From positions 1 to 61,892 of IMG/VR virus record IMGVR_UViG_3300036945_000312: DNA of 61,892 nucleotides, one strand, 5' to 3'. The first letter of the stretch is position 1, and every line of letters starts with the position of its first letter. Under the pieces are notes generated by a model. That model searched no databases, was not told the DNA's origin, and saw nothing but the letters and a program-made list of their open reading frames with translations. This document shows, one piece after another, positions 1 to 47,090 of the stretch. The DNA is from a virus. Its lineage: Duplodnaviria; Caudoviricetes. A program made the position numbers and the translations under genes.

Positions 1-204
1 GGGTGTCGGCGTTGGCGTAGGCGTGGGCGTTGGCGTTGGCGTTGGCGTTGGCGTTGGCGTTGGCGTTGGCGTAGGTGTCGGCGTGGGCGTTGGCGTGGGC
101 GTTGGCGTGGGCGTTGGCGTTGGCGTTGGCGTTGGCGTTGGCGTTGGCGTTGGCGTTGGCGTTGGCGTTGGCGTTGGCGTTGGCGTTGGCGTAGGTGTCG
201 GCGT
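1..204 (-). repeat. Hexanucleotide tandem repeat encoding (Thr-Pro)34
   Basis: GGCGTT-type units; every variant is synonymous in the - strand Thr-Pro frame (ACG/ACA, CCA/CCC/CCG/CCT). Confidence 0.95.
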
Positions 205-28714: not shown

Positions 28715-29226
28715 TCGGCGGGAAGCTCAGGCGGGGTAATAGCAAACATATCAGAGTCGATAGTCTTCATCAAACGCTCCCGCAGTAGCTGTTCCAACTC
28801 TTCCGTTGGCCTGTGCCGCATGGTAATTTCCGTCTTGTCCGTGAACAGTCCAACGTCTGATATCTTGCCTAGCAGTTCGTAGCACTTGAGCCGGATGCGG
28901 GGATCGGGGTTAGCCGAATCCACAATCAACTTGTTCGTTACGTAGGTCCGCAGTTGAGCAGCCGATTGAATGACTACCTTGTCGTACTCGTCCAGCAGGG
29001 CCTTGATATGAATGATGGTGCCCGGGGAGGACAGCATAGTCTCCGTAGCCGCCTTGGTGCCCGTGAACACGGCGTGAGCCGCAGAGATATCGGCATCTGA
29101 TACTTCCACCCCATCGGCGATTTCCGCGAGGCTGTTGAACGCAGCAGCTATTCGAGCTTGCAGGTCCTCAAACGTAGGCGGGTATTCCGCATAGGGGATG
29201 TCAGTGTCGATAACTGGAAATTGCAT
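28711..29226 (-). CDS. Putative terminase small subunit
   Basis: Start moved to ATG 29226; RLKCYELLGKISDVGLF; ATGA-coupled to terL. Confidence 0.6.
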   Translation of the reverse strand: MQFPVIDTDIPYAEYPPTFEDLQARIAAAFNSLAEIADGVEVSDADISAAHAVFTGTKAATETMLSSPGTIIHIKALLDEYDKVVIQSAAQLRTYVTNKLIVDSANPDPRIRLKCYELLGKISDVGLFTDKTEITMRHRPTEELEQLLRERLMKTIDSDMFAITPPELPAE

Positions 29227-29465
29227 AAGTTGTCCGCAGCCGTGAGGCGATATGAAATTATTACACAAAAATTTGGCAGGGGCATTTTATTTAGCTAGGG
29301 GGGTCTTTCCGTGGGGCCGATACCGGAATTCCGATAACGGAAAAATATTTACCTATGTCTAGTTAAGAGGTGGTGAAGTAGCCGTGGGAGTTGCGCTCAG
29401 TGTAATTGCAGGCGGGACTCCAAACGCCAGAAACGGGTCCGGGGTACCGGTGGGGTCAGGCTTCC

Positions 29466-29479
29466 AACTAATATTAGTT
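29466..29479. promoter_or_regulatory. 14-bp palindrome AACTAATATTAGTT, copy 1
   Basis: Perfect copy 21 bp upstream of the -35 of the first early promoter. Confidence 0.8.
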
Positions 29480-29500
29480 TCAGTTCGTCGCCTAGGGTAC

Positions 29501-29529
29501 TTGACAATGTATAAGAACTGGGTTACATT
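29501..29529 (+). promoter_or_regulatory. Strong sigma70 early promoter
   Basis: TTGACA-17 bp-TACATT. Confidence 0.85.
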
Positions 29530-29587
29530 ATAGGTGTTGGTTGTTTAAGGGTTGTTTCATACCTACGACTGACTTGGAGTATTTCAC

Positions 29588-30175
29588 ATGGCTAAGTCTA
29601 CACAGATGGTTTCCTTCAATACCACTGCAACAGTGGTTATCAAGTCAATGAAGGCCCAAGAGGCCGCATCAATAAAAGGCGGCGAGGTCATCGAGGCGGC
29701 GTTCATCCAATACCTTGACGCTTGCACTATTGCAGGTATTCCCCGCGATCAAGAGGGCGTTGATGCTATCGGGAAAGAGATATTGGAATGTCAAGTGATG
29801 TTAGACGCTATTGCGATACTTGGGCCTGTGTTTAAGAATACGGTGTCGTCATATTCAGGGGGCGCAAAACGCGCTTATTTCTTGAATGTTCAATGGTACG
29901 CATCAGCGCATCTGCACCCCCTCAAAGGCGGCTTGGCTTTCCTGCCGTGGGGTAAGGGCGCGAAGGCCGAAGCGGCACGTTTGGCGGCACTGGCTGCAGG
30001 TGGCGAAGCCCCCGCGACAAAAGCTCGGACAGGCAATGTCACCACGACCGATAACAAAGCTTTGTTAGATACCCTTAGGAAAGCAATAGAACAAGCTATG
30101 ATTTTGAATCGCCTTGAAATGAAGGGTAGTCTAATTGACCTTGCTTGTGAGATTGACCCTGACTTCAAGGTGTAA
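29588..30175 (+). CDS. Hypothetical immediate-early protein
   Basis: 195 aa, GGAG RBS, first gene after the promoter. Confidence 0.75.
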   Translation: MAKSTQMVSFNTTATVVIKSMKAQEAASIKGGEVIEAAFIQYLDACTIAGIPRDQEGVDAIGKEILECQVMLDAIAILGPVFKNTVSSYSGGAKRAYFLNVQWYASAHLHPLKGGLAFLPWGKGAKAEAARLAALAAGGEAPATKARTGNVTTTDNKALLDTLRKAIEQAMILNRLEMKGSLIDLACEIDPDFKV

Positions 30176-30225
30176 GGGCATACCATGAACTCCTGAGGGC
30201 AGGGGTTTGTAGTGCGTCTTTGCAC
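30170..30225 (+). other. Long imperfect intergenic hairpin (RNase III-site-like)
   Basis: GTGTAAGGGCATAC-CATGAACTCCTG-AGGG-CAGGGGTTTGTA-GTGCGTCTTTGCAC. Confidence 0.5.
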
Positions 30226-30241
30226 TTAACGGAGAAATAGT

Positions 30242-30496
30242 ATGACAAGTACCGCAGCATTTTTGGCCCAGCAGATCAATGCGAACGGTTTCGTTCGCGG
30301 CTGGAATCAGTCGCACCGCTTCGGCGTGCGCGTACAGGACGGCGAAGTGACTTCGCTATTCCCAGTCAATGCGGACTGGGATGGCTACAGATTCCATGGA
30401 TATGACCGGGCAACTCGTGCCGAGGTGCTGGAATACTACGGCAGCAAAGGTGCCGCGATGGCTGCATGGACCAAACGGTTTGGAGGTGCAGAATGA
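30242..30496 (+). CDS. Hypothetical early protein
   Basis: 84 aa, GGAG RBS. Confidence 0.7.
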   Translation: MTSTAAFLAQQINANGFVRGWNQSHRFGVRVQDGEVTSLFPVNADWDGYRFHGYDRATRAEVLEYYGSKGAAMAAWTKRFGGAE

Positions 30497-30672
30497 ATGC
30501 CGTGATTCAAGCCCTTGATGGGCAATGTAAGCCCATCGGAGAGCCAAAGGACTTGACTACTGTGGCTGGGATGGCTTGGGGTGTTCGGGAAGATATCCAA
30601 AATGGAAAACGGGGAATGATCCCCAACTGGTGTTCTAGTCCTGCAGTGTGGTGGCTAGTGACGGAAGCCTGA
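30493..30672 (+). CDS. Hypothetical early protein
   Basis: Start moved to ATG 30493 (GGAGG RBS, ATGA overlap). Confidence 0.65.
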   Translation: MNAVIQALDGQCKPIGEPKDLTTVAGMAWGVREDIQNGKRGMIPNWCSSPAVWWLVTEA

Positions 30673-30689
30673 CCAGCGCCTACCCAACG

Positions 30690-30712
30690 AACCGCCGAAA
30701 GGCGGTTTTTTT
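30690..30712 (+). terminator. Intrinsic terminator
   Basis: AACCGCC-GAAA-GGCGGTT plus T run. Confidence 0.9.
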
Positions 30713-30748
30713 ACGCCCGGATTTTCCCGGGCGTTGCATGATAGTAAG

Positions 30749-30780
30749 GCAAGTGAGCAAGTGAGCAGGCGAGCAGGCGA
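30749..30780 (+). repeat. Four tandem 8-bp repeats (iteron-like)
   Basis: GCAAGTGA GCAAGTGA GCAGGCGA GCAGGCGA. Confidence 0.7.
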
Positions 30781-30814
30781 GCGGGAGCGCCATACAAGAA
30801 TACACCTTACTCTT

Positions 30815-30828
30815 AACTAATATTAGTT
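30815..30828. promoter_or_regulatory. 14-bp palindrome, copy 2
   Basis: Perfect AACTAATATTAGTT in the non-coding region. Confidence 0.8.
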
Positions 30829-31490
30829 GGGCTCTTACACTGAGTAAGTGTAGGCTCGTATTGTAAGAGGTTCAATGCGTCAGCCTTTTGGGCCCTAAAG
30901 TATGGTGTATATAGAAGAAGTAACGGTAACAAGTGGTATTCGGGTTTCTACATTACGTTTGAATAGTATTCTGGCATACAGGCACTACGAAGGGGCCAAA
31001 ACGGCAGTGGCGGACGTAACGAAAAGCAAGAAAACCTCTAATAATAATACTTTATAAGATTGTATTGTTACCTTGTACTGCCCGTAACGCGCTAAAAAAA
31101 CCGTAGGATTTGCACGGAATCCGAATTTGTGAGTTCTCAAAGAACAAGTTATTTGTATCTTTTTAAAAAAGTCCGGGGGCGCTCTCAGGAGCTCTCTCCG
31201 GCCAAAAACATCGCATCATCGCCTTCTCTTGATACCCTACACTACTTCCCGCCCCGTTCCGCCCAACCTGTTGATTTCAGAGGGTTTTCCCCTGTAAGAC
31301 TGCTGTGGTACGCGGCTACGCCCTTACATAAAGATTCCCGTAACCTATACAGACAAGAGGGTACAAGCCTACACTATAACGTTCAAAAAACTATACAGAC
31401 TCAACTCAAAATAAATCGTACCAAACACTTTTCCCGCCCCCTTTTTCCGTGGTACACTCTGCTCCTCTTCAACTTAATAGACTCTTAAAT

Positions 31491-32294
31491 ATGCTTTACT
31501 CTTACAACGATCTTGCCCTGCAGCCCCAAACGCAGGCTGTTCAGTTCTCTCCTTCTGCAGATATGCCATTTACTAGCCTGCGGGTCTGCCATGACAAGGC
31601 GGTAAAACTGTTCGTGATCGGCACCCCAGAGGCCCCAGTGTTCTACGGGGCGGAAGCTATCCTGAACGGGCTCCTGCATGGTGCGGCTGATATGGAGTTG
31701 CCTTTGCCTGACCCCTTGCCAGTGCCAGAGGCGTTCGCGGTGCTGGATGCACAGGAGCAACTAATATTAGTTACGGCTGCTCTGGGGGCGCACATGGACA
31801 GCCTCACGCTGCTGGCAGGGTCAAAGGCGGCACTATCGCTGCTCATGGGCAAGGCTACTGCTCTGGGGTTTGTGGTGGCTAGGTCTAGCGATGCTCTGGG
31901 CTTGGGCGACAAGGTACGGGCCGACACTACTGCGGCTATACGGAGCCGACTGCTGAATGAGCAGGTATCTAACGATATAGAAGACGCCACGACTAAGATA
32001 CCGAATGCGGTGATGGACGCGCCCCTGATGCAGATCGTACCGGGTGGGGCTGCGATGCTGGAGCGGCTGGAGCGTATGCGTCCGGACACTAAGAGCCTTG
32101 CTACGCGCATGAAGTGGCCCTTCAGGGAGATGGAGGTGGGCGATGTGGTGCGTATCCCTGCGGTGCTAGCCAAACGGGCGCAAACGGCAGTCCACGTATA
32201 TGGTGCGCGGATGGGTAAGCGGTTTGCTAGCACCGGGGAGCGGGGCACGGGGATTCTCACGGTAACCCGCCTGCGGGACAAAGCCCCCACCTGA
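31491..32294 (+). CDS. Hypothetical protein with C-terminal WPFREMEVGD small domain (putative DNA-binding)
   Basis: Start moved to ATG 31491; own terminator; C-terminal KWPFREMEVGDVV...KRF...VTRL. Confidence 0.7.
   Translation: MLYSYNDLALQPQTQAVQFSPSADMPFTSLRVCHDKAVKLFVIGTPEAPVFYGAEAILNGLLHGAADMELPLPDPLPVPEAFAVLDAQEQLILVTAALGAHMDSLTLLAGSKAALSLLMGKATALGFVVARSSDALGLGDKVRADTTAAIRSRLLNEQVSNDIEDATTKIPNAVMDAPLMQIVPGGAAMLERLERMRPDTKSLATRMKWPFREMEVGDVVRIPAVLAKRAQTAVHVYGARMGKRFASTGERGTGILTVTRLRDKAPT
31759..31772. promoter_or_regulatory. 14-bp palindrome, copy 3 (intragenic)
   Basis: Perfect copy read as Q-L-I-L-V. Confidence 0.75.
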
Positions 32295-32314
32295 ACTGCA
32301 ACTACTGTCATCGC

Positions 32315-32339
32315 AGGGCCCCAGAAGTGGGGCTTTTTT
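32315..32339 (+). terminator. Intrinsic terminator
   Basis: GGCCCCA-GAAG-TGGGGCT plus T run. Confidence 0.85.
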
Positions 32340-32374
32340 ACGCCTAAATACGGCCCCAACTACCCGCCAAACAC

Positions 32375-32403
32375 TTGACATACTAGACAATGTATGGTAC
32401 AAT
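32375..32403 (+). promoter_or_regulatory. Strong sigma70 early promoter
   Basis: TTGACA-17 bp-TACAAT with TG extended -10. Confidence 0.9.
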
Positions 32404-32459
32404 AGACCCATCGACTTGAGGATCGCTTCAAGTTAGCAGGCACCATACACATCACGGGC

Positions 32460-32474
32460 CACATCATTAACAAT
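32460..32474 (+). promoter_or_regulatory. boxA-like antitermination sequence
   Basis: CACATCATTAACAAT resembles rrn boxA (TGCTCTTTAACAAT), placed after a 5' hairpin. Confidence 0.45.
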
Positions 32475-32491
32475 CTGACGTAAGTCTAACC

Positions 32492-32505
32492 AACTAATAT
32501 TAGTT
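32492..32505. promoter_or_regulatory. 14-bp palindrome, copy 4
   Basis: Perfect; extends to 18 bp (CC...GG). Confidence 0.8.
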
Positions 32506-32864
32506 GGGAGGGCAAGCAAGCCGCTGCTGGTATACCCAGAAGCCTAAAGGTTCGCCTAGTGCGAATCTCCCTTGGCGAGTAAGCGTAGGGTACAGCCCCT
32601 GCATATGTGTGGTAACAGCACTGTGCAATGCAAACCGATACTACTTAAATGAGTGCTGCTCCTCTCGGGGAAACCCTGCATGAGCCCTTGGGACGTGGAA
32701 CCAGCATAGCTGGGATAAGCCACGCCGACAAACTCTATCGTAGTTACAAGCCAATACAAAGCATACAAAGCCAATGAATTCTGACGGGCATAACTGCCCG
32801 TGCTAGAGCGCCTAGCATATAGGGCACATCACTGTGCCTTATGTAGTGGATGCTCCCACTGCGT

Positions 32865-32878
32865 AACTAATATTAGTT
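32865..32878. promoter_or_regulatory. 14-bp palindrome, copy 5
   Basis: Perfect; extends to 22 bp GCGTAACTAATATTAGTTACGC, just before the RBS. Confidence 0.8.
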
Positions 32879-32899
32879 ACGCTAACTTAAGGAAACGAT

Positions 32900-33655
32900 A
32901 TGAATACGTACACAAAATTAAGCCTGCACTTGACCAAGCACATTTACGCCAAAGGCAAGAACCAAGGCGATGCGCCGCTGGATGGTAGTCGTAGAGGGCG
33001 AGCTACGGAGCGGGTTATCTCCCGGCCCGGTTACATGGCGGTAATCATGCACCACACCTGCATACTGCGGGCTTATGAGGACGGGTCGTTTATGCTGGAC
33101 ACACAGGGCTGGCACGACAGCCCCACGACACGAGAGGCACTGCGGGTGGCGTTGAGGTTCACACCGCTGACAGGGCACAGGGTGTATAAGCGCAAGCAGT
33201 TTGGCGTCTCCCAAGCGTGTATGACGCTCAAGGATGGCCGGGTCGTGGCGTTCTACGATGGCATGAGGTTCAACGCTGACGGTGACCTGACTACGGACTT
33301 GATACCGTTTCAGCAACGCCGGATTAACCCAAAGGAATCGAAAGAATTCGCACAAGGGCTCAAGGACTCCGGGTTCACGGCTATGTATCCCCTGCTGTAT
33401 GCCACCTGCACCGCCCCGGAGATGCTACCGTTACCGGATACGCGGCACATGGCGGACATACTGACGACAGACTACAGGGCACCCGCATGGCCAGAGATTA
33501 TCCAGTACTACAAGTTCGAGATGCTATACGACTACAAGTCGCAGACTCGGTTCTTCCAAGAGCGGGGCGATGCCAAGTCCTGCTGGTCTGTGATGATGGC
33601 GCTGTGCAAGGCCAATATGTATGAGACCGTTGCGTCTTCTGTCAGTGCAGTGTAA
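32900..33655 (+). CDS. Hypothetical early protein
   Basis: 251 aa, TAAGGA RBS; GWHDSPTTR and FYDGM motifs. Confidence 0.8.
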   Translation: MNTYTKLSLHLTKHIYAKGKNQGDAPLDGSRRGRATERVISRPGYMAVIMHHTCILRAYEDGSFMLDTQGWHDSPTTREALRVALRFTPLTGHRVYKRKQFGVSQACMTLKDGRVVAFYDGMRFNADGDLTTDLIPFQQRRINPKESKEFAQGLKDSGFTAMYPLLYATCTAPEMLPLPDTRHMADILTTDYRAPAWPEIIQYYKFEMLYDYKSQTRFFQERGDAKSCWSVMMALCKANMYETVASSVSAV

Positions 33656-33663
33656 GCAACCCC

Positions 33664-33677
33664 AACTAATATTAGTT
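33664..33677. promoter_or_regulatory. 14-bp palindrome, copy 6
   Basis: Perfect, intergenic, upstream of the AAA ATPase RBS. Confidence 0.8.
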
Positions 33678-33702
33678 CAAACCAAACCAACCAAGGAATA
33701 TC

Positions 33703-34758
33703 ATGCAAGTAACTCTCAACCAAGCCGCCACCCTTATCCGTACCTGCGGCACTACGAATACATTCCTCCTGCAGGGTCAGCCCGGTGTAGGCAAGTCGGC
33801 CATCCTGCGTATGCTGGCTGCAGAACTACCAGATTATCAGGCGTGCTACATTGACGTAGCTAACCTTGACCTCGGTGACTTGGGTATGCCGGTCATTGAC
33901 CGTGACCAGATGGTTACCAACTACGCACCGAATAGCAGGTTCGGTATCGGCAAGGGGCAAGATCGGCCTGTGCTGCTGATGCTGGACGAGTTGGGCAAGG
34001 GTGCCCGTCCCATTATTAATATGCTGCTGCCTGTGATTCTTGAGCGTAGGCTTGGTGACGTTGTGCTGCCAGTGGGTAGCATCGTGTTCGGTACGACTAA
34101 CCTTGCGACTGACGGGGTAGGCGACAACATACCGGCTCATGCCCACAACAGGATGACGGTGCTGGACGTAGCTAACCCTGCGGTTGACGACTGGCTTGGT
34201 TGGGCTGCTAACAATGACATTGCCCCGGAGTTGATGGCGTTTGCCCGTGACTTCCCCCAAGTGTTCGAGCGGTACGACCTGATCGACAAGGTAGAGAAGA
34301 ACCCGTACATCTTCAGCCCATTGACGGGTAATACCAAGGCGTTCTGTTCGCCTAGGTCTATGGAGAAGGCAAGCAACATCATCAAGCAACGTGCGGCCCT
34401 TGGCTCTGCGTTACTGCCCGCACTGATCGGCACACTGGGCGAGGCTGCAGCCCGTGACTTGGATGCACTGGTCAATCTGGCTGACGGTATGACTAGCTTC
34501 GTTAGCATCATCGCAGACCCCGCTAAGGCACGGTTACCTGACGGTGCGGGTGCGTACTTCCTGATGGCCTTCAGCCTTGCGGCCCGTGCCAATGCAGAGA
34601 ACCTGACGCAGATCATCACGTATGTCAATCGGTTCGAGTCGTTCGAGGCCAAGACGCTGTTCGCCACCACACTGGCAAGCAACAAGGCTAAGGTAGGCAT
34701 GGCGTGTAGCAATCGTACCTTTACGGTAATGGCCGCTGCTCTCGGTAAGTTCTTCTAA
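33703..34758 (+). CDS. AAA+ ATPase (MoxR/dynein-related AAA_5-like)
   Basis: Walker A GQPGVGKS, Walker B LLMLDE, sensor N, NR arginine finger, SPRS. Confidence 0.9.
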   Translation: MQVTLNQAATLIRTCGTTNTFLLQGQPGVGKSAILRMLAAELPDYQACYIDVANLDLGDLGMPVIDRDQMVTNYAPNSRFGIGKGQDRPVLLMLDELGKGARPIINMLLPVILERRLGDVVLPVGSIVFGTTNLATDGVGDNIPAHAHNRMTVLDVANPAVDDWLGWAANNDIAPELMAFARDFPQVFERYDLIDKVEKNPYIFSPLTGNTKAFCSPRSMEKASNIIKQRAALGSALLPALIGTLGEAAARDLDALVNLADGMTSFVSIIADPAKARLPDGAGAYFLMAFSLAARANAENLTQIITYVNRFESFEAKTLFATTLASNKAKVGMACSNRTFTVMAAALGKFF

Positions 34759-34770
34759 CTAATATTAGTT
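34757..34770. promoter_or_regulatory. 14-bp palindrome, copy 7
   Basis: Perfect; overlaps the ATPase stop codon. Confidence 0.8.
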
Positions 34771-34775
34771 CCATC

Positions 34776-34940
34776 ATGTTAATCACAGAACGCACAAGCA
34801 ACGGTCAGGTCGTAGTCACATTGCACAAAGACTGGTCACCTGACCGGATAGGCAAGGCATACGTCCCGCGCTTCCAGAACAACATCCCATCACGGGATGC
34901 CTACAAACTGCAGACATTACTCCTAAGGAAAACGAAATGA
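34776..34940 (+). CDS. Hypothetical protein (54 aa, below cutoff)
   Basis: MLITERTSNGQVVVTLHKDWSPDRIG...; ATGA-coupled to the next gene. Confidence 0.6.
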   Translation: MLITERTSNGQVVVTLHKDWSPDRIGKAYVPRFQNNIPSRDAYKLQTLLLRKTK

Positions 34941-35179
34941 AAACACCAACAACCACAACAGTCGTACCCGACTGGGCTGCTATCTGGGCGCGGCTTGAGA
35001 CGGGGGAGATTCTGACTTTAGAGGACATGACCCTGCCCATGACCCGTGCGTTCAATATGTGGGCGCGGGTACATAAGACCATGGGCCTTAAGACCCGGGG
35101 ACTACTCACTGGCGGGTATCAGGTGCAGATAGGCAACCCTGTGCCAACAGAGAAACGCCGGTATACCAAGAGGAACTGA
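34937..35179 (+). CDS. Hypothetical protein
   Basis: 80 aa, TAAGGA RBS. Confidence 0.7.
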   Translation: MKTPTTTTVVPDWAAIWARLETGEILTLEDMTLPMTRAFNMWARVHKTMGLKTRGLLTGGYQVQIGNPVPTEKRRYTKRN

Positions 35180-35180
35180 T

Positions 35181-35360
35181 ATGAAGACCACTATCATTAC
35201 CGACGATGCTATTAGCCTTACGACTCTACGTAAGTTTCAGACAGAGATTGCGATTCGGGATAGGCAGATTGCCTTCCTGATGGAAGCATTGCAGAACACG
35301 GCGTCCCATGCACAGATGGTGCTGGCGGCTATCGTTGAGACAACCCCAACGGATAAGTAA
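35181..35360 (+). CDS. Hypothetical protein (59 aa)
   Basis: MKTTIITDDAISLTTLRKFQ...; GAGGA RBS. Confidence 0.65.
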   Translation: MKTTIITDDAISLTTLRKFQTEIAIRDRQIAFLMEALQNTASHAQMVLAAIVETTPTDK

Positions 35361-35449
35361 TGGACTACCTCTACGACTTCCTCGTGTCGTTCGTAGTGGT
35401 CATAGGACTGCTACTTATGAGTCTATTTAAATACGTGCTACCCAACTAA
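35360..35449 (+). CDS. 29-aa single-pass membrane mini-protein
   Basis: MDYLYDFLVSFVVVIGLLLMSLFKYVLPN; TAATG coupling. Confidence 0.5.
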   Translation: MDYLYDFLVSFVVVIGLLLMSLFKYVLPN

Positions 35450-35457
35450 TATTAGTT
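35444..35457. promoter_or_regulatory. 14-bp palindrome, copy 8
   Basis: Perfect; supplies the mini-gene stop, precedes the peptidase-VWA RBS. Confidence 0.8.
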
Positions 35458-35474
35458 ACAACTAAGGAAACAAA

Positions 35475-36635
35475 ATGAACAGTTCAGATCGTATCAAGAA
35501 GGCCCACGTTGCCATCATGCAGCACAAGAAGCTGTGTGTATTCTCCGGCCTGCTGGCCTGCGGTAAGGTGACCGTGACTGAGGACATCCCCACTGCGTGT
35601 ACTAATGGCTGGGACGTGCAGTACAACCCCGAGTTTGTCGCGGAGCTTAAGGACCCTGAGTTGCGGTTCCTTGTGTTGCATGAGGCGTTGCACAAAGCGT
35701 ATCGTCACCTCCATGTGTGGAAAAGCCTGTGGGATATTGACCCTCAGTTGGCAAACATTGCGGCTGACCACTTCAACAACCTGTCGCTGGTTGACTTGGA
35801 TGCAGGCGAGGGGTTCCTTGCCATGCCTAAGGTAGGTGTGCAGCCTGACCCGCAGTACCGGGGTAACTCTGTGTCGATGATCTTCGACAAGCTTCGGCAG
35901 AACCCCCCACCCAAAGACCCGCAAGGTGGCGGCGGTGACGGTATGGACGACCACGACTGGAAGTCAGGCAATGCAGCAAGCCTCACAGAGCAAGAGATGC
36001 AGGGCAAGGAGATCGACCGGGCTATGCGTCAGGGCGAGATCATGCGTAGCAAGATGCAAGGCAAGGGTAGTAAGGGTCAGTCTGGGGTGTTCGGTGACTT
36101 GCTGACACCTGTGATTGACTGGCGCAAGGTATTGCGCGACTTCATCACTGAGACCTGCGCTGGCCGCGACGAGTCAACGTGGCGTAGACCTAACCGTAGG
36201 TTTATCGGTGACGATGTGTATATGCCTAGCATGATGAGTACGACGATGAACGAATTAGTTATCGGGTTCGATACCTCAGGCTCGTGCTTCGGTGGTGCAG
36301 ACATGGCGCGGTTCGTATCCGAGATCAAGGTAATCATCGAGGACGTAAAGCCTAGCAAGTGCCGGGTGATCTACTGGGATACATCAGTTCGTGGTGAGCA
36401 AGTGTTCGAGGACGGACAGTTTGCTGTGCAGAACCTCAAGCCTCAGGGTGGTGGCGGTACGGATGGCTCGGTGCTGTTCGACTACCTGCGCGACAAGCAG
36501 ATATCCCCTGATGCCATCATCCAGTTCAGCGATGGGTACGTAGGTAGCTGGGGCAATAGCTCATGGCCTACGCTGTGGGCACTGACAACTAATATTAGTT
36601 CGCCTTACGGTACGACTATTCACTTAGGAGAATGA
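35475..36635 (+). CDS. DUF2201-type putative metallopeptidase with C-terminal VWA domain
   Basis: PTACTNG, HEALH (HExxH), MIDAS DTSGS, GGGGTD, SDG. Confidence 0.9.
   Translation: MNSSDRIKKAHVAIMQHKKLCVFSGLLACGKVTVTEDIPTACTNGWDVQYNPEFVAELKDPELRFLVLHEALHKAYRHLHVWKSLWDIDPQLANIAADHFNNLSLVDLDAGEGFLAMPKVGVQPDPQYRGNSVSMIFDKLRQNPPPKDPQGGGGDGMDDHDWKSGNAASLTEQEMQGKEIDRAMRQGEIMRSKMQGKGSKGQSGVFGDLLTPVIDWRKVLRDFITETCAGRDESTWRRPNRRFIGDDVYMPSMMSTTMNELVIGFDTSGSCFGGADMARFVSEIKVIIEDVKPSKCRVIYWDTSVRGEQVFEDGQFAVQNLKPQGGGGTDGSVLFDYLRDKQISPDAIIQFSDGYVGSWGNSSWPTLWALTTNISSPYGTTIHLGE
36587..36600. promoter_or_regulatory. 14-bp palindrome, copy 9 (intragenic)
   Basis: Perfect copy read as T-T-N-I-S-S near the gene end. 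Confidence 0.75.
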
Positions 36636-36636
36636 T

Positions 36637-36897
36637 ATGAAATTCGTTATGGAAATCAACAACGTCAAGATCGTGCTGACCACTGAGCAATTGGAAGCCA
36701 TCACTACGGCACTGGATGGCTGCGAGTATCTGGAGAACAAGTACTTAGGCAACAACCTAGGGGTCAACGGGTCGAACTACTTGGAACTACTGAGCCCCGT
36801 GGTCATGCGAGACCTGCTCAAGGTAGGCGTTATGAGTGACGTAGATCACGAAGCCAAGACGTTTGTTACCAAGCAATACAACAAGGATAAGGCATGA
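36637..36897 (+). CDS. Hypothetical protein
   Basis: 86 aa, AGGAG RBS. Confidence 0.7.
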   Translation: MKFVMEINNVKIVLTTEQLEAITTALDGCEYLENKYLGNNLGVNGSNYLELLSPVVMRDLLKVGVMSDVDHEAKTFVTKQYNKDKA

Positions 36898-37307
36898 CAA
36901 CCGCATGGGCACACTTGCCTAACGCCGCGCACATCGACCGGGTACTGGCCTCACTGAAGGCTAACCCGAAGGTATGGGTCGCTGCTCGGACCGCTGCTTG
37001 GGGCGCTGCTCGGGGCGCTGCTCGGGACGCTGTTTGGGACGCTGCTCGGGACGCTGCTCGGGACGCTGCTCGGACCGCTGCTTGGGACGCTGCTTGGGGC
37101 GCTGCTTGGGACGCTGCTCGGGGCGCTGCTCGGGACGCTGCTTGGGGCGCTATAGCTGCGCTCATAGCATGGGACGACTGCGGGGGGTTCTTGGATATGC
37201 CACCCGATGCCGTTCGGCTAGTTGCCGCTGTTGGGAACCACTCTGCCATTCTGGTGCTACCCGCAGCTATCGTATTCAGTAAGTCATCTGTAAGTTTCGC
37301 CAACTAA
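36894..37307 (+). CDS. Protein with tetrapeptide (A-A-[WR]-[DGT])n repeats
   Basis: 12-bp tandem units at about 36980-37150. Confidence 0.75.
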   Translation: MTTAWAHLPNAAHIDRVLASLKANPKVWVAARTAAWGAARGAARDAVWDAARDAARDAARTAAWDAAWGAAWDAARGAARDAAWGAIAALIAWDDCGGFLDMPPDAVRLVAAVGNHSAILVLPAAIVFSKSSVSFAN

Positions 37308-37315
37308 TATTAGTT
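37302..37315. promoter_or_regulatory. 14-bp palindrome, copy 10
   Basis: Perfect; supplies the AAC-TAA stop, precedes the next RBS. Confidence 0.8.
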
Positions 37316-37334
37316 CACCAACCAAGGAAATAAA

Positions 37335-38225
37335 ATGAGCATCACAACAATCGCCGGAGTCGCACGGGCCGCTATGTTAGTAGACCTGAACATCAAGGTC
37401 TACTCGGGTCGTAAGCAAGATCGCAAGACGCAGGAGGAAGTCACCACGGCCAAGGGCTCCGGCTCCAAGCGTGCCGCCTCTGTGTACAAGTCGCTGTTCG
37501 CAGACTGTAAGGAACTGGACGACATCACCAAGTACCAAGCCCGTGTCCGTGCAGAGCATTACCGCCTGACTAAGCCGTGGTCAGATAACGGCCAGCGCCT
37601 GCTGCCTACCAAGCTGCTGCTTGAGTACCAAGGGGCTATGGCTAAGTGCAAGACGGAGTTCGAGTTCCTTGTGGACAAGTTCGTGGTCAAGTACGACACC
37701 CTCGTGGCGGCGGCTGCGTTTCAGTTGGGCACCTTGTTTGACCGCGACGAGTACCTGCCCGGTAGCCAGATCGCTCGTAAGTTCGCCATCGAGACATCGT
37801 TCAGCCCACTGCCCACTGCGGGAGACTTCCGGGTAGACATCGAGAGTGAGGTACAGCAGCAACTGATTACGCAGTACGAGGCTAAGGCACAGCAGTTGCT
37901 GGCTGACGCCAATCAAGACTCATGGTCTCGCCTGCATAAGGTACTGACTAACCTGAGTGATCGGTTAGTTGTTGAGGAGGACGGTACCAAGCGCAAGTTC
38001 CACGATACCTTGGTCACCAATGCCGAAGAACTGTGCGAGTTGCTGGACGCTCTGAATGTTACGGCTGACCCTGATCTGGAGCGGGCACGGCGCAAGCTGT
38101 TAGATGCCATGACGGGCGTTACTCCCAAAGAACTACGCACAGAGGACAGCACTCGCCTTGAGACTAAGCGCAAGGTAGACGCTATCTTGGATGCCTTCGA
38201 CTGGGGTATCTCTGATGGAGCCTAA
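37335..38225 (+). CDS. DUF3150-like helical protein
   Basis: AMLVDLNI..SGRKQD, TKPWSDNGQRLLP, LNVTADPDLE; accompanies the AAA/VWA pair. Confidence 0.65.
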   Translation: MSITTIAGVARAAMLVDLNIKVYSGRKQDRKTQEEVTTAKGSGSKRAASVYKSLFADCKELDDITKYQARVRAEHYRLTKPWSDNGQRLLPTKLLLEYQGAMAKCKTEFEFLVDKFVVKYDTLVAAAAFQLGTLFDRDEYLPGSQIARKFAIETSFSPLPTAGDFRVDIESEVQQQLITQYEAKAQQLLADANQDSWSRLHKVLTNLSDRLVVEEDGTKRKFHDTLVTNAEELCELLDALNVTADPDLERARRKLLDAMTGVTPKELRTEDSTRLETKRKVDAILDAFDWGISDGA

Positions 38226-38547
38226 GGAGTGGGATAAAGTAAAACGGCTCGACGCACTGCATCAAATAAAAACTTTCTATATGACCCCTGATGACCCTTA
38301 CCACTCGCACCGCTACGAAGAGCGGGCAGAGATGTATTCCCTGCGTTCATGGAATGAAGCCACCCGAGAGACTACGGATGAGCGTCTCATAATCGACCGC
38401 CCTGCATGGCTATCGGATATCATAAATGTAGCCGCTGTTGGGGGGCACTTACAACGCCCTCCGATATACCCGCCCACTTGCATTGTCTGGTTCCGCACTG
38501 ATGCGGACCACAAGCTTGTGGATTTTATTGACTTTACGAAAGCATAA
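38215..38547 (+). CDS. Hypothetical protein
   Basis: Start moved to ATG 38215 (MEPKEW). Confidence 0.6.
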   Translation: MEPKEWDKVKRLDALHQIKTFYMTPDDPYHSHRYEERAEMYSLRSWNEATRETTDERLIIDRPAWLSDIINVAAVGGHLQRPPIYPPTCIVWFRTDADHKLVDFIDFTKA

Positions 38548-38549
38548 CG

Positions 38550-39044
38550 ATGATCTACGACAACCTATCCGACGCGGAGCTTATCCGCGAGGCTGACAAC
38601 CAGAATGTACAGGGCCTTACCAAAGCCCTAGCCGAAAGGCTTGAGATGCGGCAGCAGCCTCCGGGCTCTGTATTCCACGACCAAGCCACGTTCATGCGGG
38701 CTTGCGGACAAAGTACTGTGGAGAGTAACGAGGTGCAGGCCAAGTTGTATTTCAACCTACTGTACGAAGAGTTGGATGAGCTAATGGAAGCGCGGGTAGA
38801 CCGTAATGAAGTTGAAGCCTTTGATGCAGTGCTGGACTGCATCGTTGTGTTGATCGGCTTAGGACTATCATTTGGCTGGCCTATGGAAGAGGGTTGGAAA
38901 GAAGTTGTTCGGTCTAACTTCGACAAGATAGATTCAGCTACCGGCAAGGTAACGCGCCGCGACGATGGCAAGATTCTGAAGCCCGAGGGCTGGACCCCTC
39001 CTAACCTCGAACTAATATTAGATGAACATGGAGCGTTGAAATGA
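38550..39044 (+). CDS. MazG-like / PRA-PH nucleotide pyrophosphohydrolase
   Basis: EELDEL, DAVLD, EVVRSNFDK, RRDDGKILKPEGW. Confidence 0.85.
   Translation: MIYDNLSDAELIREADNQNVQGLTKALAERLEMRQQPPGSVFHDQATFMRACGQSTVESNEVQAKLYFNLLYEELDELMEARVDRNEVEAFDAVLDCIVVLIGLGLSFGWPMEEGWKEVVRSNFDKIDSATGKVTRRDDGKILKPEGWTPPNLELILDEHGALK
39010..39023. promoter_or_regulatory. Near-perfect palindrome copy (13/14, intragenic)
   Basis: AACTAATATTAGAT read as E-L-I-L-D. Confidence 0.6.
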
Positions 39045-39214
39045 CAACCGCTAAACCTGCAGCACCTGCGCCCCGCATCAAGCAACCCAACGAAGCGTTG
39101 CCCCAGCAGAACAGCTACAAAACATCTGTCTACAAGATAGGTGACGGAGATAGGTTTGCCCCAGTGCGCCCCGGTGCATTGGACTTCCTCAAGTACAAGT
39201 CGAAAGGATTTTGA
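39041..39214 (+). CDS. Hypothetical protein (57 aa) with RPGAxDF motif
   Basis: MTTAKPAAPAPRIKQ...RPGALDFLKYKSKGF; GGAG RBS, ATGA overlap. Confidence 0.65.
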   Translation: MTTAKPAAPAPRIKQPNEALPQQNSYKTSVYKIGDGDRFAPVRPGALDFLKYKSKGF

Positions 39215-39215
39215 T

Positions 39216-39473
39216 ATGAGCCCGGATATTGCACAGCAAATTATCGACACACTACACGCCCGGATTGACGATCTTATGGCAGAGCGTGACCGGCTGCTCT
39301 ACGAAGTGGGCGCAATCCCCGCGATCAAAGCAGAGCGTGATGCACTGATGGCGGCTGGGAAACTGGCCTTGGATTTTGTCGAGTGGGTATGGCGTGACGT
39401 GACGCTGAATGAGTTTGGCGAAGATATGCGTCTGAATGTTGAGATTGCACTACGTCAGGCGGGTGTGCAATGA
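39216..39473 (+). CDS. Hypothetical protein
   Basis: Start moved to ATG 39216. Confidence 0.6.
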   Translation: MSPDIAQQIIDTLHARIDDLMAERDRLLYEVGAIPAIKAERDALMAAGKLALDFVEWVWRDVTLNEFGEDMRLNVEIALRQAGVQ

Positions 39474-39721
39474 GCTTGCTACCCCTACCAAAGAAAATCA
39501 TCCTGCACACGCAACTACCTGACCACTATTGGTACGGTGATGTTGTCGGGCATACCGACGCAGCCATGCAAGCATACGGCCAGCAATGCCGAGATGCTGC
39601 GTTAAAGGAATCTGCACAGATTTGTGACGCCTACCACGGCACCGCGCTCACGCCATCTGATTGTGCGAACGAAATCAGGAGAATGACAGGCACAAGCCAA
39701 AAGACGAGGCAACAAAAATGA
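39470..39721 (+). CDS. Hypothetical protein
   Basis: ATGA-coupled; MQAYG motif. Confidence 0.6.
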   Translation: MSLLPLPKKIILHTQLPDHYWYGDVVGHTDAAMQAYGQQCRDAALKESAQICDAYHGTALTPSDCANEIRRMTGTSQKTRQQK

Positions 39722-39864
39722 TTCGCAAAACACAAAGCGTATTCAAACGGTTTATCCGCACGAAAAACGGAAGCCATGCAGAGACTGTGCTGCGAGAAAC
39801 GTGGCTCTTGCTGTGGCTGGTGCCGATCTATACACGAGATTCGGTTTTGAGTCACACCCTGTGA
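39718..39864 (+). CDS. Hypothetical protein
   Basis: Start moved to ATG 39718; WLLLWLVPIY. Confidence 0.55.
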   Translation: MIRKTQSVFKRFIRTKNGSHAETVLRETWLLLWLVPIYTRDSVLSHTL

Positions 39865-39890
39865 TGGTTAACGCAAAAAAAGGAAATGAA

Positions 39891-40301
39891 ATGACAGACA
39901 CAAGCCGAGAGGCATTTGAAGCGTGGGCATTGCCAATCCGCGGGGATAACGCAACATGGAAAGAAAGTGGTGAGTGTGAATTAGCTTGGCGGGCTTGGGA
40001 CGCATCAAGGAAGCAAGCGCAGTCGGTGGAGCCAGTGGCTTGGGTATTTTTGCCAAACCGTGAGTTGCTTTGGCCCGATGAAGTAGAAGCAACGAACCCG
40101 ATAGCTATTGACGAGTACAAGCCCCTCTACGCTCACCCAGTCCCACCAGTGCAGCAAGTAGCAGTGCCTGCAACGGATAGTGAAATCTACACGGCATACA
40201 TCGCAGCCACAAATCAAACACTGAGACCTCAAGATGAAAGGCTCGCCCTCAAGTTTGCCCGAGCAATTGAAGCCCATCACAAAATAGGAGCAAAGCCATG
40301 A
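39891..40301 (+). CDS. Hypothetical protein (REAFEAW / EPVAW mosaic family)
   Basis: Start moved to ATG 39891; EPVAW..PLYAHP, FARAIEA. Confidence 0.65.
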   Translation: MTDTSREAFEAWALPIRGDNATWKESGECELAWRAWDASRKQAQSVEPVAWVFLPNRELLWPDEVEATNPIAIDEYKPLYAHPVPPVQQVAVPATDSEIYTAYIAATNQTLRPQDERLALKFARAIEAHHKIGAKP

Positions 40302-40534
40302 TGCCACCACTACCCGAGCCATTCCCTGCTGGCTACATCGCGCAGACAGAGTATTTCTTTACGGCAGACCAGATCAAAGAGTACGGCAAAGCATGTGCAG
40401 CGGCAGAGCGAGAGCGCCTTTTACAGATCGTCTACGAGCAAGCAACTCCGTTCGGTACATCGGGCGAATGCATTTGGATCGCTGTTAAGTCGCAAGTGCG
40501 ACACGTACCCAAAACAGACTGGTCGGCAGCATGA
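40298..40534 (+). CDS. Hypothetical protein
   Basis: AGGAG RBS, PPLPEP, ADQIKEYG. Confidence 0.6.
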   Translation: MMPPLPEPFPAGYIAQTEYFFTADQIKEYGKACAAAERERLLQIVYEQATPFGTSGECIWIAVKSQVRHVPKTDWSAA

Positions 40535-40884
40535 CCGCATCAGATCAGATTAAGCTGGCGCTGGACGATATCGGCCCTATGTCGTCATTAGAACTACGCA
40601 GGCTGCTAGGGTTCAAACAAACGAAGGCCCAAAAATACATCAGGGAACTGCGTGAGGCAAAGCAGATTCACATCTTGCGAAACGATCATCAGCCTGACGG
40701 GACGCGAGGTAGATTTGTGCCCGTCTATGCGATTGGTGAGGGAGCGGCACCCCCGCAGGTCCGACCAGTGACAAATGCGATACGCAACCGGCGATACCGT
40801 CAGCGGCACGCAGCCATTCTGTCGGCTCGTAGATACCCCCATGTCCGGCAAGCGGCGGGTGTGTGGGCGGGGTTGATGCAGTGA
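40531..40884 (+). CDS. Putative winged-helix DNA-binding protein
   Basis: GPMSSLELRRLLG...KYIRELREAKQIHI. Confidence 0.55.
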   Translation: MTASDQIKLALDDIGPMSSLELRRLLGFKQTKAQKYIRELREAKQIHILRNDHQPDGTRGRFVPVYAIGEGAAPPQVRPVTNAIRNRRYRQRHAAILSARRYPHVRQAAGVWAGLMQ

Positions 40885-41069
40885 TGCCAAGACCTAAACC
40901 CCCCGAGCCTTGGAACGCAGGGCACTACTCTATGAGGCTAACAACCCCACAAAGAATAGCACTTGCCCATCTGGGCGGTGCTAGCTGGATTCGAGAACAG
41001 ATTGACAAAGCAATAAAGGAACGTGGCGATGACTTACATTCGCGTAGTAACCAAAAACGCTGCGACTAA
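40884..41069 (+). CDS. Small ribbon-helix-helix-like protein
   Basis: YSMRLT..QR..L..LGGASWIREQID. Confidence 0.55.
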   Translation: MPRPKPPEPWNAGHYSMRLTTPQRIALAHLGGASWIREQIDKAIKERGDDLHSRSNQKRCD

Positions 41070-41427
41070 CCCCATAGCCCGGGCAGTTGCAAGGCAGCAG
41101 TTGAAGAAGTATCTGCTTGGTACGAAGATTGCCCTGTTCATGATAGTGCCGGGTGAAGAATATAAGGAGCGGCTAGAGGGTATAGTGAGTACGTTAGAGC
41201 CTATGATTATGGCTTCGTGTATCGAGGTTTCGGAACGGTTCGCTGATCTGAAGGCCCCGATACTTAGCATGAGAGCAGGGCGAGACGTATGCGTAAAACT
41301 ACTTACAGAGGGAACCTACGATCCTACGCAGGCCCCAGTAATCTGTAACGCATTAGATGCCGCTGAAGAAGTGAACCCTAAAGTTAGCCCCTTGTCCATG
41401 CAGAAAGCCCTCTATGAGTTGTCCTGA
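41023..41427 (+). CDS. Hypothetical protein
   Basis: 134 aa, AAGGA RBS. Confidence 0.6.
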   Translation: MAMTYIRVVTKNAATNPIARAVARQQLKKYLLGTKIALFMIVPGEEYKERLEGIVSTLEPMIMASCIEVSERFADLKAPILSMRAGRDVCVKLLTEGTYDPTQAPVICNALDAAEEVNPKVSPLSMQKALYELS

Positions 41428-41629
41428 TCCCGCACTGAACACAACGCGCACCGCTGCCATTGATCGGAACTACCACTGGATACCGGTCAGTGAGCATACC
41501 CCCCGAGGGGTGAAGCTGCAGCTAATCAACAAGGCGTCAGGCGTAGCCCACATGGGGCTGTACTTCAGGTCCGAGAGCTATTACACCCACTGGGCACCTC
41601 TGCCCACCTTTAAGAAGGATGTTGAATGA
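41414..41629 (+). CDS. Hypothetical protein (DUF551-like)
   Basis: WIPVSE...THWAPLP. Confidence 0.65.
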   Translation: MSCPDPALNTTRTAAIDRNYHWIPVSEHTPRGVKLQLINKASGVAHMGLYFRSESYYTHWAPLPTFKKDVE

Positions 41630-41859
41630 GAAATGAAAAGGGCCAATTTGTAAAGCGTACCGAGGTTGAAGAGGTTCCCTGTACCTGCCCACCTGACTCT
41701 CCGTTCCTCTGGTACCAGAACCGCCACAAGCATTCAGGTTTAGCGGAACCTGCGTGGGTACACAAGGTATCGCAGAAGGCTACGGATGCGCTTGCCAAGC
41801 GCAGGGCTGCAGGTACGGAGGATGCGTTTACGTTGCGAGGAAGCTTGCAAAATGGATGA
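41626..41859 (+). CDS. Hypothetical protein
   Basis: RNEKGQF N-terminus, coupled start. Confidence 0.6.
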   Translation: MRNEKGQFVKRTEVEEVPCTCPPDSPFLWYQNRHKHSGLAEPAWVHKVSQKATDALAKRRAAGTEDAFTLRGSLQNG

Positions 41860-42025
41860 CTCCAACACCCCCGCATTTGAAACGTGGACTCGCAAAGACC
41901 TTGATGAGTTTGCCCATACGGTACACGCCCGAGTCATCGAGCTTGTGATGCAGAACCTGCAGCTACGGATTGATTTGAAGCGGGCCAACCAAGAACTAAG
42001 TAACTATAAGGACGACTGGAAATGA
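41852..42025 (+). CDS. Hypothetical protein
   Basis: Start moved to ATG 41852; PAFETW..DLDEFA. Confidence 0.6.
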   Translation: MDDSNTPAFETWTRKDLDEFAHTVHARVIELVMQNLQLRIDLKRANQELSNYKDDWK

Positions 42026-42258
42026 GCGCATTAGACAAACAAGAAGGTGGCGATCACTACAAGAATTTGATGATTCAACCCATCACATACATCCATGCCA
42101 ACGACCTAGATTTCCTGCAGGGCAACGTGGTTAAGTACATCACCCGCCACAAGGACAAGAACGGTGCTGCCGATGTTCGTAAGGCGTTGCACTACTGCCA
42201 ACTAATATTAGAACTACAGTACGAGGAGACCCCAGATGGCAACTACACCCGAGAGTAA
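42022..42258 (+). CDS. DUF3310 / T7 gp1.7-like nucleotide kinase domain protein
   Basis: QEGGDHY, IQP, GNVVKYITR, DVRKALHY. Confidence 0.85.
   Translation: MSALDKQEGGDHYKNLMIQPITYIHANDLDFLQGNVVKYITRHKDKNGAADVRKALHYCQLILELQYEETPDGNYTRE
42200..42213. promoter_or_regulatory. Near-perfect palindrome copy (12/14, intragenic)
   Basis: AACTAATATTAGAA read as Q-L-I-L-E. Confidence 0.5.
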
Positions 42259-42529
42259 AATTAAAGCGGCGGTTAAGAAGATACTTAACGCCCATGATGT
42301 GTATTACTTCCCCCCTGCTACGGCAGGGTACGGACGCTCCGGGGTTCCGGATATCGTCTGCTGCATCATGGGACGGTTCCTCGCTATCGAATGCAAGGCA
42401 GGCAAGGGCAAGACTACGGCATTGCAAGACCGGGAGATAGAGGCTATTAGGGATGCAGGCGGTATTGCTATTGTGGTTAACGAGGACAACCTTGACGCGC
42501 TAGTCAAAGTTCTCAAGGGGCTTGTATGA
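42236..42529 (+). CDS. VRR-NUC nuclease / resolvase-like
   Basis: PESKIK, GVPD, AIECKA, TALQ. Confidence 0.88.
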   Translation: MATTPESKIKAAVKKILNAHDVYYFPPATAGYGRSGVPDIVCCIMGRFLAIECKAGKGKTTALQDREIEAIRDAGGIAIVVNEDNLDALVKVLKGLV

Positions 42530-44427: not shown

Positions 44428-44461
44428 AATACCGCCTCAATCAACTGAATAAAGAACACTC

Positions 44462-45121: not shown

Positions 45122-45127
45122 GAATAT

Positions 45128-45415
45128 ATGGCTACCAAACCACGTAACTATGCCGCCGAGTACGCTGCATACCAAGGCACCCCCGCACAGATCAAGAACC
45201 GTGCTGAACGGAACAAGGCCCGTAGGGACTATGAGAAAGCAAACGGCAACCTGCCTAGTGACATGGACGTAGACCACAAGAAGGCTATGTCCAAAGGTGG
45301 GGCTACCAAGCTGGGTAACCTTCGAGCGGTTACCGATAACGCCAACCGTAGTTTTTCCCGCACCAAGACAGGTGCAATGAAGTCTCAAACAAGCAAGCGG
45401 GAATCCGCTAAGTAA
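45128..45415 (+). CDS. HNH-like basic protein
   Basis: DVDHKKAMSKGG...NLR....NR. Confidence 0.75.
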   Translation: MATKPRNYAAEYAAYQGTPAQIKNRAERNKARRDYEKANGNLPSDMDVDHKKAMSKGGATKLGNLRAVTDNANRSFSRTKTGAMKSQTSKRESAK

Positions 45416-45426
45416 AGTAGTATTCC

Positions 45427-45495: not shown

Positions 45496-45515
45496 CGTCC
45501 GTGAAAGGATATCCC

Positions 45516-47066: not shown

Positions 47067-47090
47067 CACTTAGGCTAGACTGTGTATAAT
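47063..47090 (+). promoter_or_regulatory. Consensus sigma70 promoter
   Basis: TTGACA-16 bp-TATAAT. Confidence 0.85.

Follow-up and report, generated by a model that had tools for sequence, protein, structure and literature searches.

A structured leader RNA with a boxA-like motif at the head of the early operon of an uncultured phage

The locus and its transcription units

We have analysed a stretch of phage DNA, referred to here as the window, that comprises an entire IMG/VR virus entry of 61,892 bp with an estimated completeness of 98%. Genes for the terminase large subunit and the portal are among those on the leftward side of the window. The rightward block encodes, besides a MoxR-like AAA ATPase, a DUF2201 metallopeptidase/VWA protein, a MazG-like pyrophosphatase, an Hjc/VRR-NUC-like nuclease, a PD-(D/E)XK exonuclease and a set of replication proteins (DNA polymerase A, helicase and primase). 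Among 26 window proteins scanned with Pfam and PHROGs there was no member of the RNA polymerase, integrase or repressor families, and since no phage RNA polymerase is among them it is presumably the host polymerase that transcribes this phage, which looks lytic. The same 26 proteins gave no match to an N-like protein, although small basic proteins could escape such scans. The genes and signals that frame the leader are as follows.

Approximately 29.5-51.7 kb, plus strand: rightward genes, from the Pfam and PHROGs scans
31449-32294: upstream gene, ending at the terminator-like hairpin 32318-32339
32318-32339, plus strand: intrinsic-terminator-like hairpin GCCCC-AGAAGT-GGGGC followed by T6, read from the sequence and absent from the consensus-scan list
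32375-32403, plus strand: sigma-70 promoter TTGACA-17-TACAAT with a TG extension, inferred start at about A32410
32900-33655, plus strand: first gene after the leader, with ATG at 32900 and the ribosome-binding site AAGGAAA at 32889-32895
33703-34758, rightward: MoxR-like AAA ATPase
45466-45489, plus strand: strong terminator-like hairpin (9 bp, then T6) within the early operon, just 5' of the conserved helicase part
47063-47090: second early promoter, TTGACA-16-TATAAT (12 of 12 consensus positions), with a ribosome-binding site directly after it and without a structured leader

The hairpin and T6 at 32318-32339 close the upstream gene, and the leader thus begins a new transcription unit. An earlier note on this DNA had read a near-consensus promoter in front of the leader; that reading is confirmed, with 11 of 12 positions matching, and this promoter and the one at 47063 are the only two strong sigma-70 promoters across the 20 kb early region. 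The operon that the leader heads extends over ~15-19 kb and contains a single strong internal terminator-like site, at 45466-45489. Metatranscriptome run X16 yielded one contig of 241 nt, which lies within the next gene (33115-33355) and is uninformative on the leader either way; in one DNA run the contig depth over this region is about 200.

We note two features further upstream. At 30700-30815 a conserved intrinsic terminator (ACCGCCGAAAGGCGG followed by T7), which shows compensatory changes in relatives, closes the 29588-30175 gene unit, and 3' of it lie purine-rich short repeats of the GAGCG/GTGAGC type and then a copy of the palindrome described below. Compared with the related locus L005, the window has ~500 additional bases at ~30175-30680.

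The leader itself is 491 nt long, and the earlier note's view that it holds no credible open reading frame before 32900 agrees with our finding that there is none of at least 60 aa with a credible start in 32410-32899. Its plus strand folds with a minimum free energy (MFE) of -170.4 kcal/mol, against -140.3 +/- 6.2 kcal/mol for shuffled sequence (z -4.87), and none of 100 shuffles folds as well as the native plus strand; the minus strand also folds well (z -3.30), so that the strand is not decided by thermodynamics alone. A scan of the window found no tRNAs. The Rfam search that the earlier note had called for (Rfam 15) returned no match in the window at the gathering score, and by E-value there was only noise in 29000-33200 (E 0.4-2.9) and one unrelated match (E 0.22) in five other loci of the family described below. 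Among the Rfam models without a covariance-model match were those of ROOL, GOLLD, OLE, HEARO, 6S, RNase P, group I and group II introns, the T-box and riboswitches.

A conserved RNA family and its covarying core

A locus search with the AAA ATPase led to 33 related phage loci (related loci carry L numbers here); a protein-based locus search with the gene at 32900-33655 gave no matches. In most of the 33 loci the latter gene is only ~35-43% identical. Iterated nhmmer recovered the leader near full length in 21 loci together with three partial or cut rows, and two motif scans of IMG/VR enlarged the set, after removal of duplicates, to 38 distinct sequences. These 38 family members, from uncultured phage contigs, measure 423-718 nt each, and the window carries one copy. 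A promoter of the form TTGAC[AT]-16..18-TAnnnT lies directly upstream in 36 of the 38, the two misses being rows that start inside the RNA; from its end to the first base of the match the distance is 12-18 nt, inclusive of 6 match bases in the scanned stretch. In distant loci other small genes intervene between the RNA and the homologue of 32900-33655, suggesting that the RNA is tied to the promoter and to the operon's first segment and not to any one gene. Terminator-like sites are absent within 500 nt after the core in 28 of the 38 members; in five a conserved hairpin is followed by a T-rich run, and in five the site lies at least 280 nt downstream, past the first ORF start. Where no terminator-like site is near, an ORF starts 28-308 nt 3' of the core.

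On the first 21 sequences RNAalifold proposed 40 pairs, 28 of them with compensatory changes, and on all 38 it proposed 74 pairs in 16 helices. The earlier note had asked for covariation among homologues, and this test comes out clearly: 57 of the 74 pairs have changed on both sides, and none of 500 shuffles attains any of the observed structure measures, which compare with the two controls as follows.

Cells paired: observed 93.7%; shuffles 78.0%; slid partners 34.8-40.4%
Pairs changed on both sides, of 74: observed 57; shuffles 32.3 +/- 2.7; slid partners 22-29
Covariation score: observed 0.396; shuffles 0.148; slid partners 0.043-0.075

Structure prediction and pair counting used one and the same alignment, which biases the comparison with slid partners in favour of the structure, and the shuffle control does not preserve relatedness; the margin is large against both. 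Among 2599 cells there are 169 G-U or U-G and 50 A-C or C-A, an excess that favours the plus strand, although the prediction was itself made on this strand. Together with the folding score and the empty Rfam search, the 38 homologues bear out the earlier note's proposal of a large structured phage RNA outside the known Rfam families. An all-against-all screen of column covariation for pseudoknots was swamped by phylogenetic noise; one candidate pair, 32520/32596, is G-C in 30 rows and A-U in 8 and thus paired in 38 of 38. A first covariance model with only 9 RNAalifold pairs was dropped, its helices being misaligned when the structure was mapped. In the window the leader is made up of the following elements.

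32413-32434, plus strand: P1, the 5'-terminal hairpin (9 pairs, 7 changed on both sides, 90.7% of cells paired)
Approximately 32439-32460, plus strand: weaker second hairpin, read by eye and outside the pair counts
32462-32472, plus strand: boxA-like motif CATCATTAACA, unpaired in the consensus structure, matching 8 of the 11 positions of GYTCTTTAANA
32490-32507, plus strand: P3 hairpin CC-AACTAATATTAGTT-GG, which occupies the place of boxB in the lambda nut site
32522-32626, plus strand: 5' half of the core (helices 5, 6, 8 and 9, with 100%, 100%, 100% and 89.7% paired)
32627-32744, plus strand: 3' half of the core (helices 10-15, 87.5-97.9% paired, 23 of 27 pairs changed on both sides)
32784-32862, plus strand: four abutting hairpins of the MFE structure
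32861-32882, plus strand: second palindrome hairpin GCGT-AACTAATATTAGTT-ACGC, with 11-bp arms, directly 5' of the ribosome-binding site

Several stems that the earlier note had drawn from this one sequence are supported by covariation across the 38 homologues, namely ACUUGA/UCAAGU (P1), CUGG/CCAG, GUAGGG/CCCUGC, the GUAA-capped stem, and CGUGG/CCACG around CCAGC/GCUGG. The GGGAG/CUCCC helix that it placed at the base of the multibranch is not conserved; the consensus instead closes this part with CGCU/AGCG (32522-32525/32582-32585), whose four pairs are 100% paired, three of them changed on both sides. The 5' half of the core consists of this closing helix, the CUGG/CCAG hairpin (32527-32539), a variable arm, a hairpin at 32587-32600 and a stem at 32601-32626, and contains the invariant stretches CUCCCU and GAGUAAGCG. 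The variable arm bears insertions of up to ~200 nt in other clades; a conserved insertion of ~200 nt, running from a CAGAAGC block to a CUUCCU block, is found in L018, L024, L033, L022, L023 and L145. In the 3' half a long-range helix, ACUAC (32640-44) with GUAGU (32740-44), encloses an invariant internal loop, UUAAAU/UAUC, as well as the helices 32651-54/32732-35, 32655-32687, 32692-98/32720-26 and 32701-05/32709-13. In L185 an extra copy of that phage's own palindrome tips the innermost helix of the second domain. The A/C-rich linker noticed earlier is present at 32745-32783 as an unpaired, G-poor segment with AAGCCAA repeats, and A/C-rich linkers stand at the equivalent place in other members. 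All five abutting 3' hairpins of the earlier note occur in the MFE structure, and one of them (32822-32839) has covariation support besides: as the third 3' hairpin (32819-32842, helix 16) it is conserved in the family, with 98.1% of cells paired and 4 of 6 pairs changed on both sides.

Blastn searches of cultured phages, with the window leader and with the leader of the main clade, gave no match. The nearest cultured DNA polymerases, those of Rhizobium phage RHph_TM3_14A and Pseudomonas phage KPP25, are 34-36% identical, and AAA ATPase matches in cultured phages are below 30%. Both phages have non-coding gaps of 680-770 nt near the start of their rightward genes (883-1560 in KPP25, locus L293; 5883-6564 and 7717-8487 in RHph_TM3_14A, locus L295), and the KPP25 gap contains three ~60-nt repeats. 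The family profile finds nothing in the gaps of either phage, and the covariance model R1, which covers the 3' half of the core, gives no more than noise (E 8.4) for the gap of the RHph_TM3_14A locus, the one of the two on which it was run; short look-alike words spotted by eye in the RHph_TM3_14A gap are not evidence. A search of open-access full text, in which most subscription journals are absent, led to papers on rrn, nut, put and ornate RNAs but to none on this RNA or on a boxA leader in a lytic-type phage. The leader is a member of a conserved RNA family that appears not to have been described before, and its core seems to be new.

A boxA-like motif and a phage-specific palindrome

Processive antitermination of the boxA type occurs in rRNA operons, in the nut sites of lambdoid prophages and in a few cellular genes. 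The rRNA antitermination complex comprises NusA, NusB, NusE, NusG, SuhB and S4, and boxA is the site for NusB and NusE (S10). The gammaproteobacterial consensus for boxA is GYTCTTTAANA, and mutation of positions C4 and T6 together (C4T/T6C) abolishes its function (PMC5725501). BoxA is described as necessary and sufficient for recruitment of the factors; rrn operons have one set of elements in the leader and another in the 16S-23S spacer, and boxC (UCUGUGUGGG), 18-19 nt 3' of boxA, is the 5' strand of a long leader-trailer helix (PMC10250234).

The motif in the window, CATCATTAACA, lies near the promoter, at +53 to +63 from the inferred start, is unpaired in the consensus structure, and retains both C4 and T6 of the gammaproteobacterial consensus. 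In most members the motif reads G(T/C)TCTTTAA(C/A/T)A. Measured against GYTCTTTAANA, the aligned motif is perfect in 25 of the 38 members, has one mismatch in 10 and three mismatches in the remaining 3 (the window and its two nearest relatives, L005 and L004), and it occupies RNA position 31-71 in the 36 members other than L030 and L047, whose rows begin inside the RNA. Perfect boxA matches are no commoner across the genomes of five complete relatives than matches to a reversed-pattern control (5 versus 3), so that only the fixed position carries weight: four of the five have a perfect boxA in the leader and the fifth has a leader version with one mismatch. In one complete relative (G002, the record of L023) a second perfect match lies elsewhere, at 37154-37164.

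The likeness to rrn leaders goes further in the main clade, whose 20-mer of boxA and linker matches the E. coli rrnH leader (NC_000913.3) at all but 1 of 20 positions. The exact 20-mer occurs in 90 bacterial genome stretches, typically several per genome, in bacteria that include Pasteurellaceae, Sodalis, Shewanella, Candidatus Pantoea and Enterobacter, where it is identical to rrn leaders; of the contexts listed, 8 of 9 continue into boxC. The remainder of the phage RNA has no profile match in these 90 loci. When the 38-member profile is run on 6 kb of the rrnH operon, it detects two sites and no others, the boxA of the leader at E 4.6e-4 and that of the spacer before 23S at E 0.11, a third match at E 5.1 being noise; these two sites are the two element sets described in PMC10250234. 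In most members the segment 3' of boxA forms a long helix with the 5' strand AGGUYUUUGUGUA and with the palindrome at its tip, and in the main clade a boxC-like UUUGUGU lies ~16 nt after boxA in the 5' strand of this helix. The window clade has neither the boxC-like sequence nor the long helix after boxA, only two short hairpins, and with three mismatches in its motif the case is weaker for the window phage than for the family. To judge by its sequence, the 5' module of the family is probably a novel form of the boxA-type antitermination signal.

Two further loci bear on how this module relates to the core. L008, a divergent GC-rich locus, has a boxA, its own palindrome and a core; R1 detects it at E 6.5e-5 with the closing helix compensated, and 41 of 67 ungapped pairs are canonical when it is quickly added to the alignment. 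We treat it, on the R1 match alone, as a probable member outside the 38. In L035, whose AAA ATPase is 64% identical, an 8-bp hairpin precedes a perfect boxA that lies ~110 nt ahead of the first rightward gene; in this short leader of ~150 nt (L035:1430-1620) neither the family profile nor R1 detects a core. L035 thus makes the boxA leader the common denominator, and the two loci together show boxA leader and core to be separable modules.

The earlier note had also seen two palindrome copies bracketing the leader, and both are indeed there, as AACTAATATTAGTT at 32492 and 32865. This 14-bp palindrome has 11 exact copies in the window and 4 more with 1-2 mismatches, where 0.21 would be expected by chance; the exact copies all fall within 29466-47579, and the palindrome precedes most early genes. 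A start codon follows within ~50 nt for seven of the 11, while the RNA contains one copy internally and another at its 3' end. Only the copies in or beside the RNA form long stems, and the two bracketing copies each extend their own local hairpin, with no mutual pairing past the 14 bp. Of the 11 copies, 8 have C at -1 but only 2 have G at +1, an asymmetry of the flanks that may reflect a strand-specific role. The palindrome differs from clade to clade, each version being present in 3-11 copies per locus of 1.7-15 kb (19 loci with more than one copy); a strict search with arms of 6-7 nt found one copy only in 12 further rows and no palindrome in 6. The versions are TTATAAnnTTATAA, TTCTAAGCTTAGAA, TCTTAAnnTTAAGA, TATATCGATATA, GTCTTAGnCTAAGAC, ATCTAAnnTTAGAT, TTTTAACnGTTAAAA and TTTTAAnnTTAAAA, and loci with a clade palindrome include L005, L018, L028, L010, L009, L025, L031, L007, L049, L043 and L185. 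The hairpin inside the RNA always bears the phage's own version. Copies that are identical within a genome and change between genomes would imply a phage-specific reader of the sequence and not of a generic hairpin, and a clade palindrome common to the RNA and the intercistronic sites points to a sequence-specific regulator. Palindromes before early genes recall regulator-bound sites, whether stoperator-like or boxB-like.

Possible roles of the leader

The interpretation to which we give slightly better than an even chance is that the leader acts in cis as a Nus-factor antitermination signal of the rrn/nut type, to which a conserved core of ~230 nt is fused. The host RNA polymerase would start at the strong sigma-70 promoter and transcribe the leader and the long rightward early/replication operon. 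The first ~100 nt would mimic the antitermination signal of an rRNA operon or a lambda nut site, with one or two hairpins, then a single-stranded boxA and, after it, a helix capped by the phage-specific hairpin. The boxA would recruit NusB/NusE (S10), along with the other Nus factors, to the polymerase. So modified, the enzyme would be resistant to Rho throughout the ~15-19 kb of the operon and perhaps also to terminators within it, such as 45466-45489. Binding of Nus factors and antitermination by the leader are what we infer from this arrangement of motifs. The earlier note had offered a put-like antitermination RNA among its possibilities; antitermination stands as the best-supported function, whereas the comparison with put does not, the resemblance being to rrn and lambda nut in that a boxA is followed by a phage-specific hairpin. 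Neither the boxA motif nor the recurrence of the clade-specific palindrome throughout the genome figures in that note.

Like an rrn leader, the phage RNA begins just downstream of a strong sigma-70 promoter and has a hairpin or hairpins, a single-stranded boxA and then a long structured untranslated RNA, and in the main clade it shares with gammaproteobacterial rrn an identical linker and the GU-rich 5' strand of a long helix. It differs in that it precedes protein-coding genes, that nothing else in it is rrn-like (as judged by the profile on rrnH), that its helix closes locally around the palindrome, whereas the boxC of rrn pairs with a distant trailer, and that the boxA of the window is degenerate. 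The boxB of lambda is a stem with a GNRA-like pentaloop, unlike the palindrome hairpin. With the lambda nut site, as outlined in PMC10250234, the leader shares its place in a phage early leader and a boxA followed within tens of nucleotides by a lineage-specific hairpin. Here, however, that hairpin is a palindrome of 12-16 nt that recurs before genes, a core of ~230 nt follows, no N homologue is found among the 26 proteins, and the phage looks lytic. The put element of HK022 is a small RNA of two stems. It resembles our leader as a cis-acting structured RNA behind early promoters, and it acts by itself to make the polymerase resistant to termination (PMC9378689); our leader is 5-10 times larger and has a boxA-like Nus-factor site, put being compared here by its description only. 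Finally, ROOL, GOLLD and OLE (PMC12286853) likewise run to several hundred nucleotides, combine numerous covarying helices with invariant junctions and are associated with phages, but the present RNA has no Rfam match and is a leader fused to an operon, not a free-standing gene.

A boxA alone does not explain the conservation of ~230 further nucleotides, including loops and junctions. The core (32522-32744) would be a separate module, and most likely it acts in cis on the same transcription complex or shields the long untranslated leader from Rho. Against a core that is needed for this, we note that the operon of L035 manages without one.

A different way to account for the core, which we think possible at best, is that the leader is processed to a stable, ornate RNA that acts in trans, its core cut out between the palindromic hairpins (~32508-32860) to serve as a scaffold for an RNP, as a ribozyme or as an RNA for host takeover. 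Conservation in the core extends to loops, junctions and long-range helices, well past what a boxA needs, two palindrome copies bracket the core in the window and in other clades, and the large variable insertions that separate its invariant blocks look like expansion segments of large functional RNAs. In addition, the rrn complex is described as a folding chaperone that keeps hold of the 5' end during the looping out of a long RNA (PMC10250234). A free RNA is harder to reconcile with the 28 members that have no terminator-like site in the 500 nt after the core, with palindrome copies that form local hairpins and do not pair with each other past 14 bp, and with the missing core of L035. A bolder form of the same thought, to which we attach a similarly tentative weight, is that the phage imitates an rRNA operon in miniature: the hijacked rrn complex would transcribe and fold a large, stable RNA of a new class, which would act in trans in host takeover, and a phage factor would read the palindrome.

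It is less probable still that the core is a sensor or attenuator, binding a metabolite or a host or phage protein and thereby gating the polymerase at the hairpin 32819-32842. The position of the leader suits a cis-regulator, the G-poor A/C-rich linker at 32745-32783 may resemble a Rho entry site, and in the five members noted above a T-rich run follows the conserved hairpin; the other 33 of the 38, however, lack a terminator-like site there, the Rfam search finds no riboswitch or T-box, and most riboswitch aptamers are smaller than the core. Quite improbable, in our view, is a decoy role, in which RNA from the very strong promoter would sequester NusB/NusE or further host factors and thereby lower the synthesis of host rRNA: the near-consensus promoter and a main-clade boxA identical to that of rrn would suit it, but the motif is placed in cis where an operon in need of processivity begins, the degenerate boxA of the window would be a poor decoy, and a 230-nt core would be superfluous. 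The protein sponge that the earlier note also suggested is conceivable, but the present results lend it no support. That there is no RNA element at all, and that the region instead encodes small peptides or functions at the DNA level, for instance as an origin, we regard as barely credible, for while many members have an ORF of 38-53 aa from a conserved AAAUGG and the minus strand folds well, the peptides are unrelated across clades, no Shine-Dalgarno sequence precedes the ATG, which is lost in 4 of 38 aligned rows (L015, L025, L031 and L047) and is surrounded by nucleotides that sit in covarying helices, L004 has no ORF of at least 30 aa in 612 nt, and G-U cells outnumber A-C cells.

The preferred reading of the leader as an rrn/nut-like antitermination signal fused to a core makes this phage family a testable case of a virus borrowing the rRNA transcription machinery of its host, and with this family the small group of large RNAs of bacteria and phages gains a further structured member. 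Should the more tentative idea of a miniature rRNA operon read by a phage factor be true, the palindromic hairpin would tie this RNA to ten or more identical sites before the early genes.
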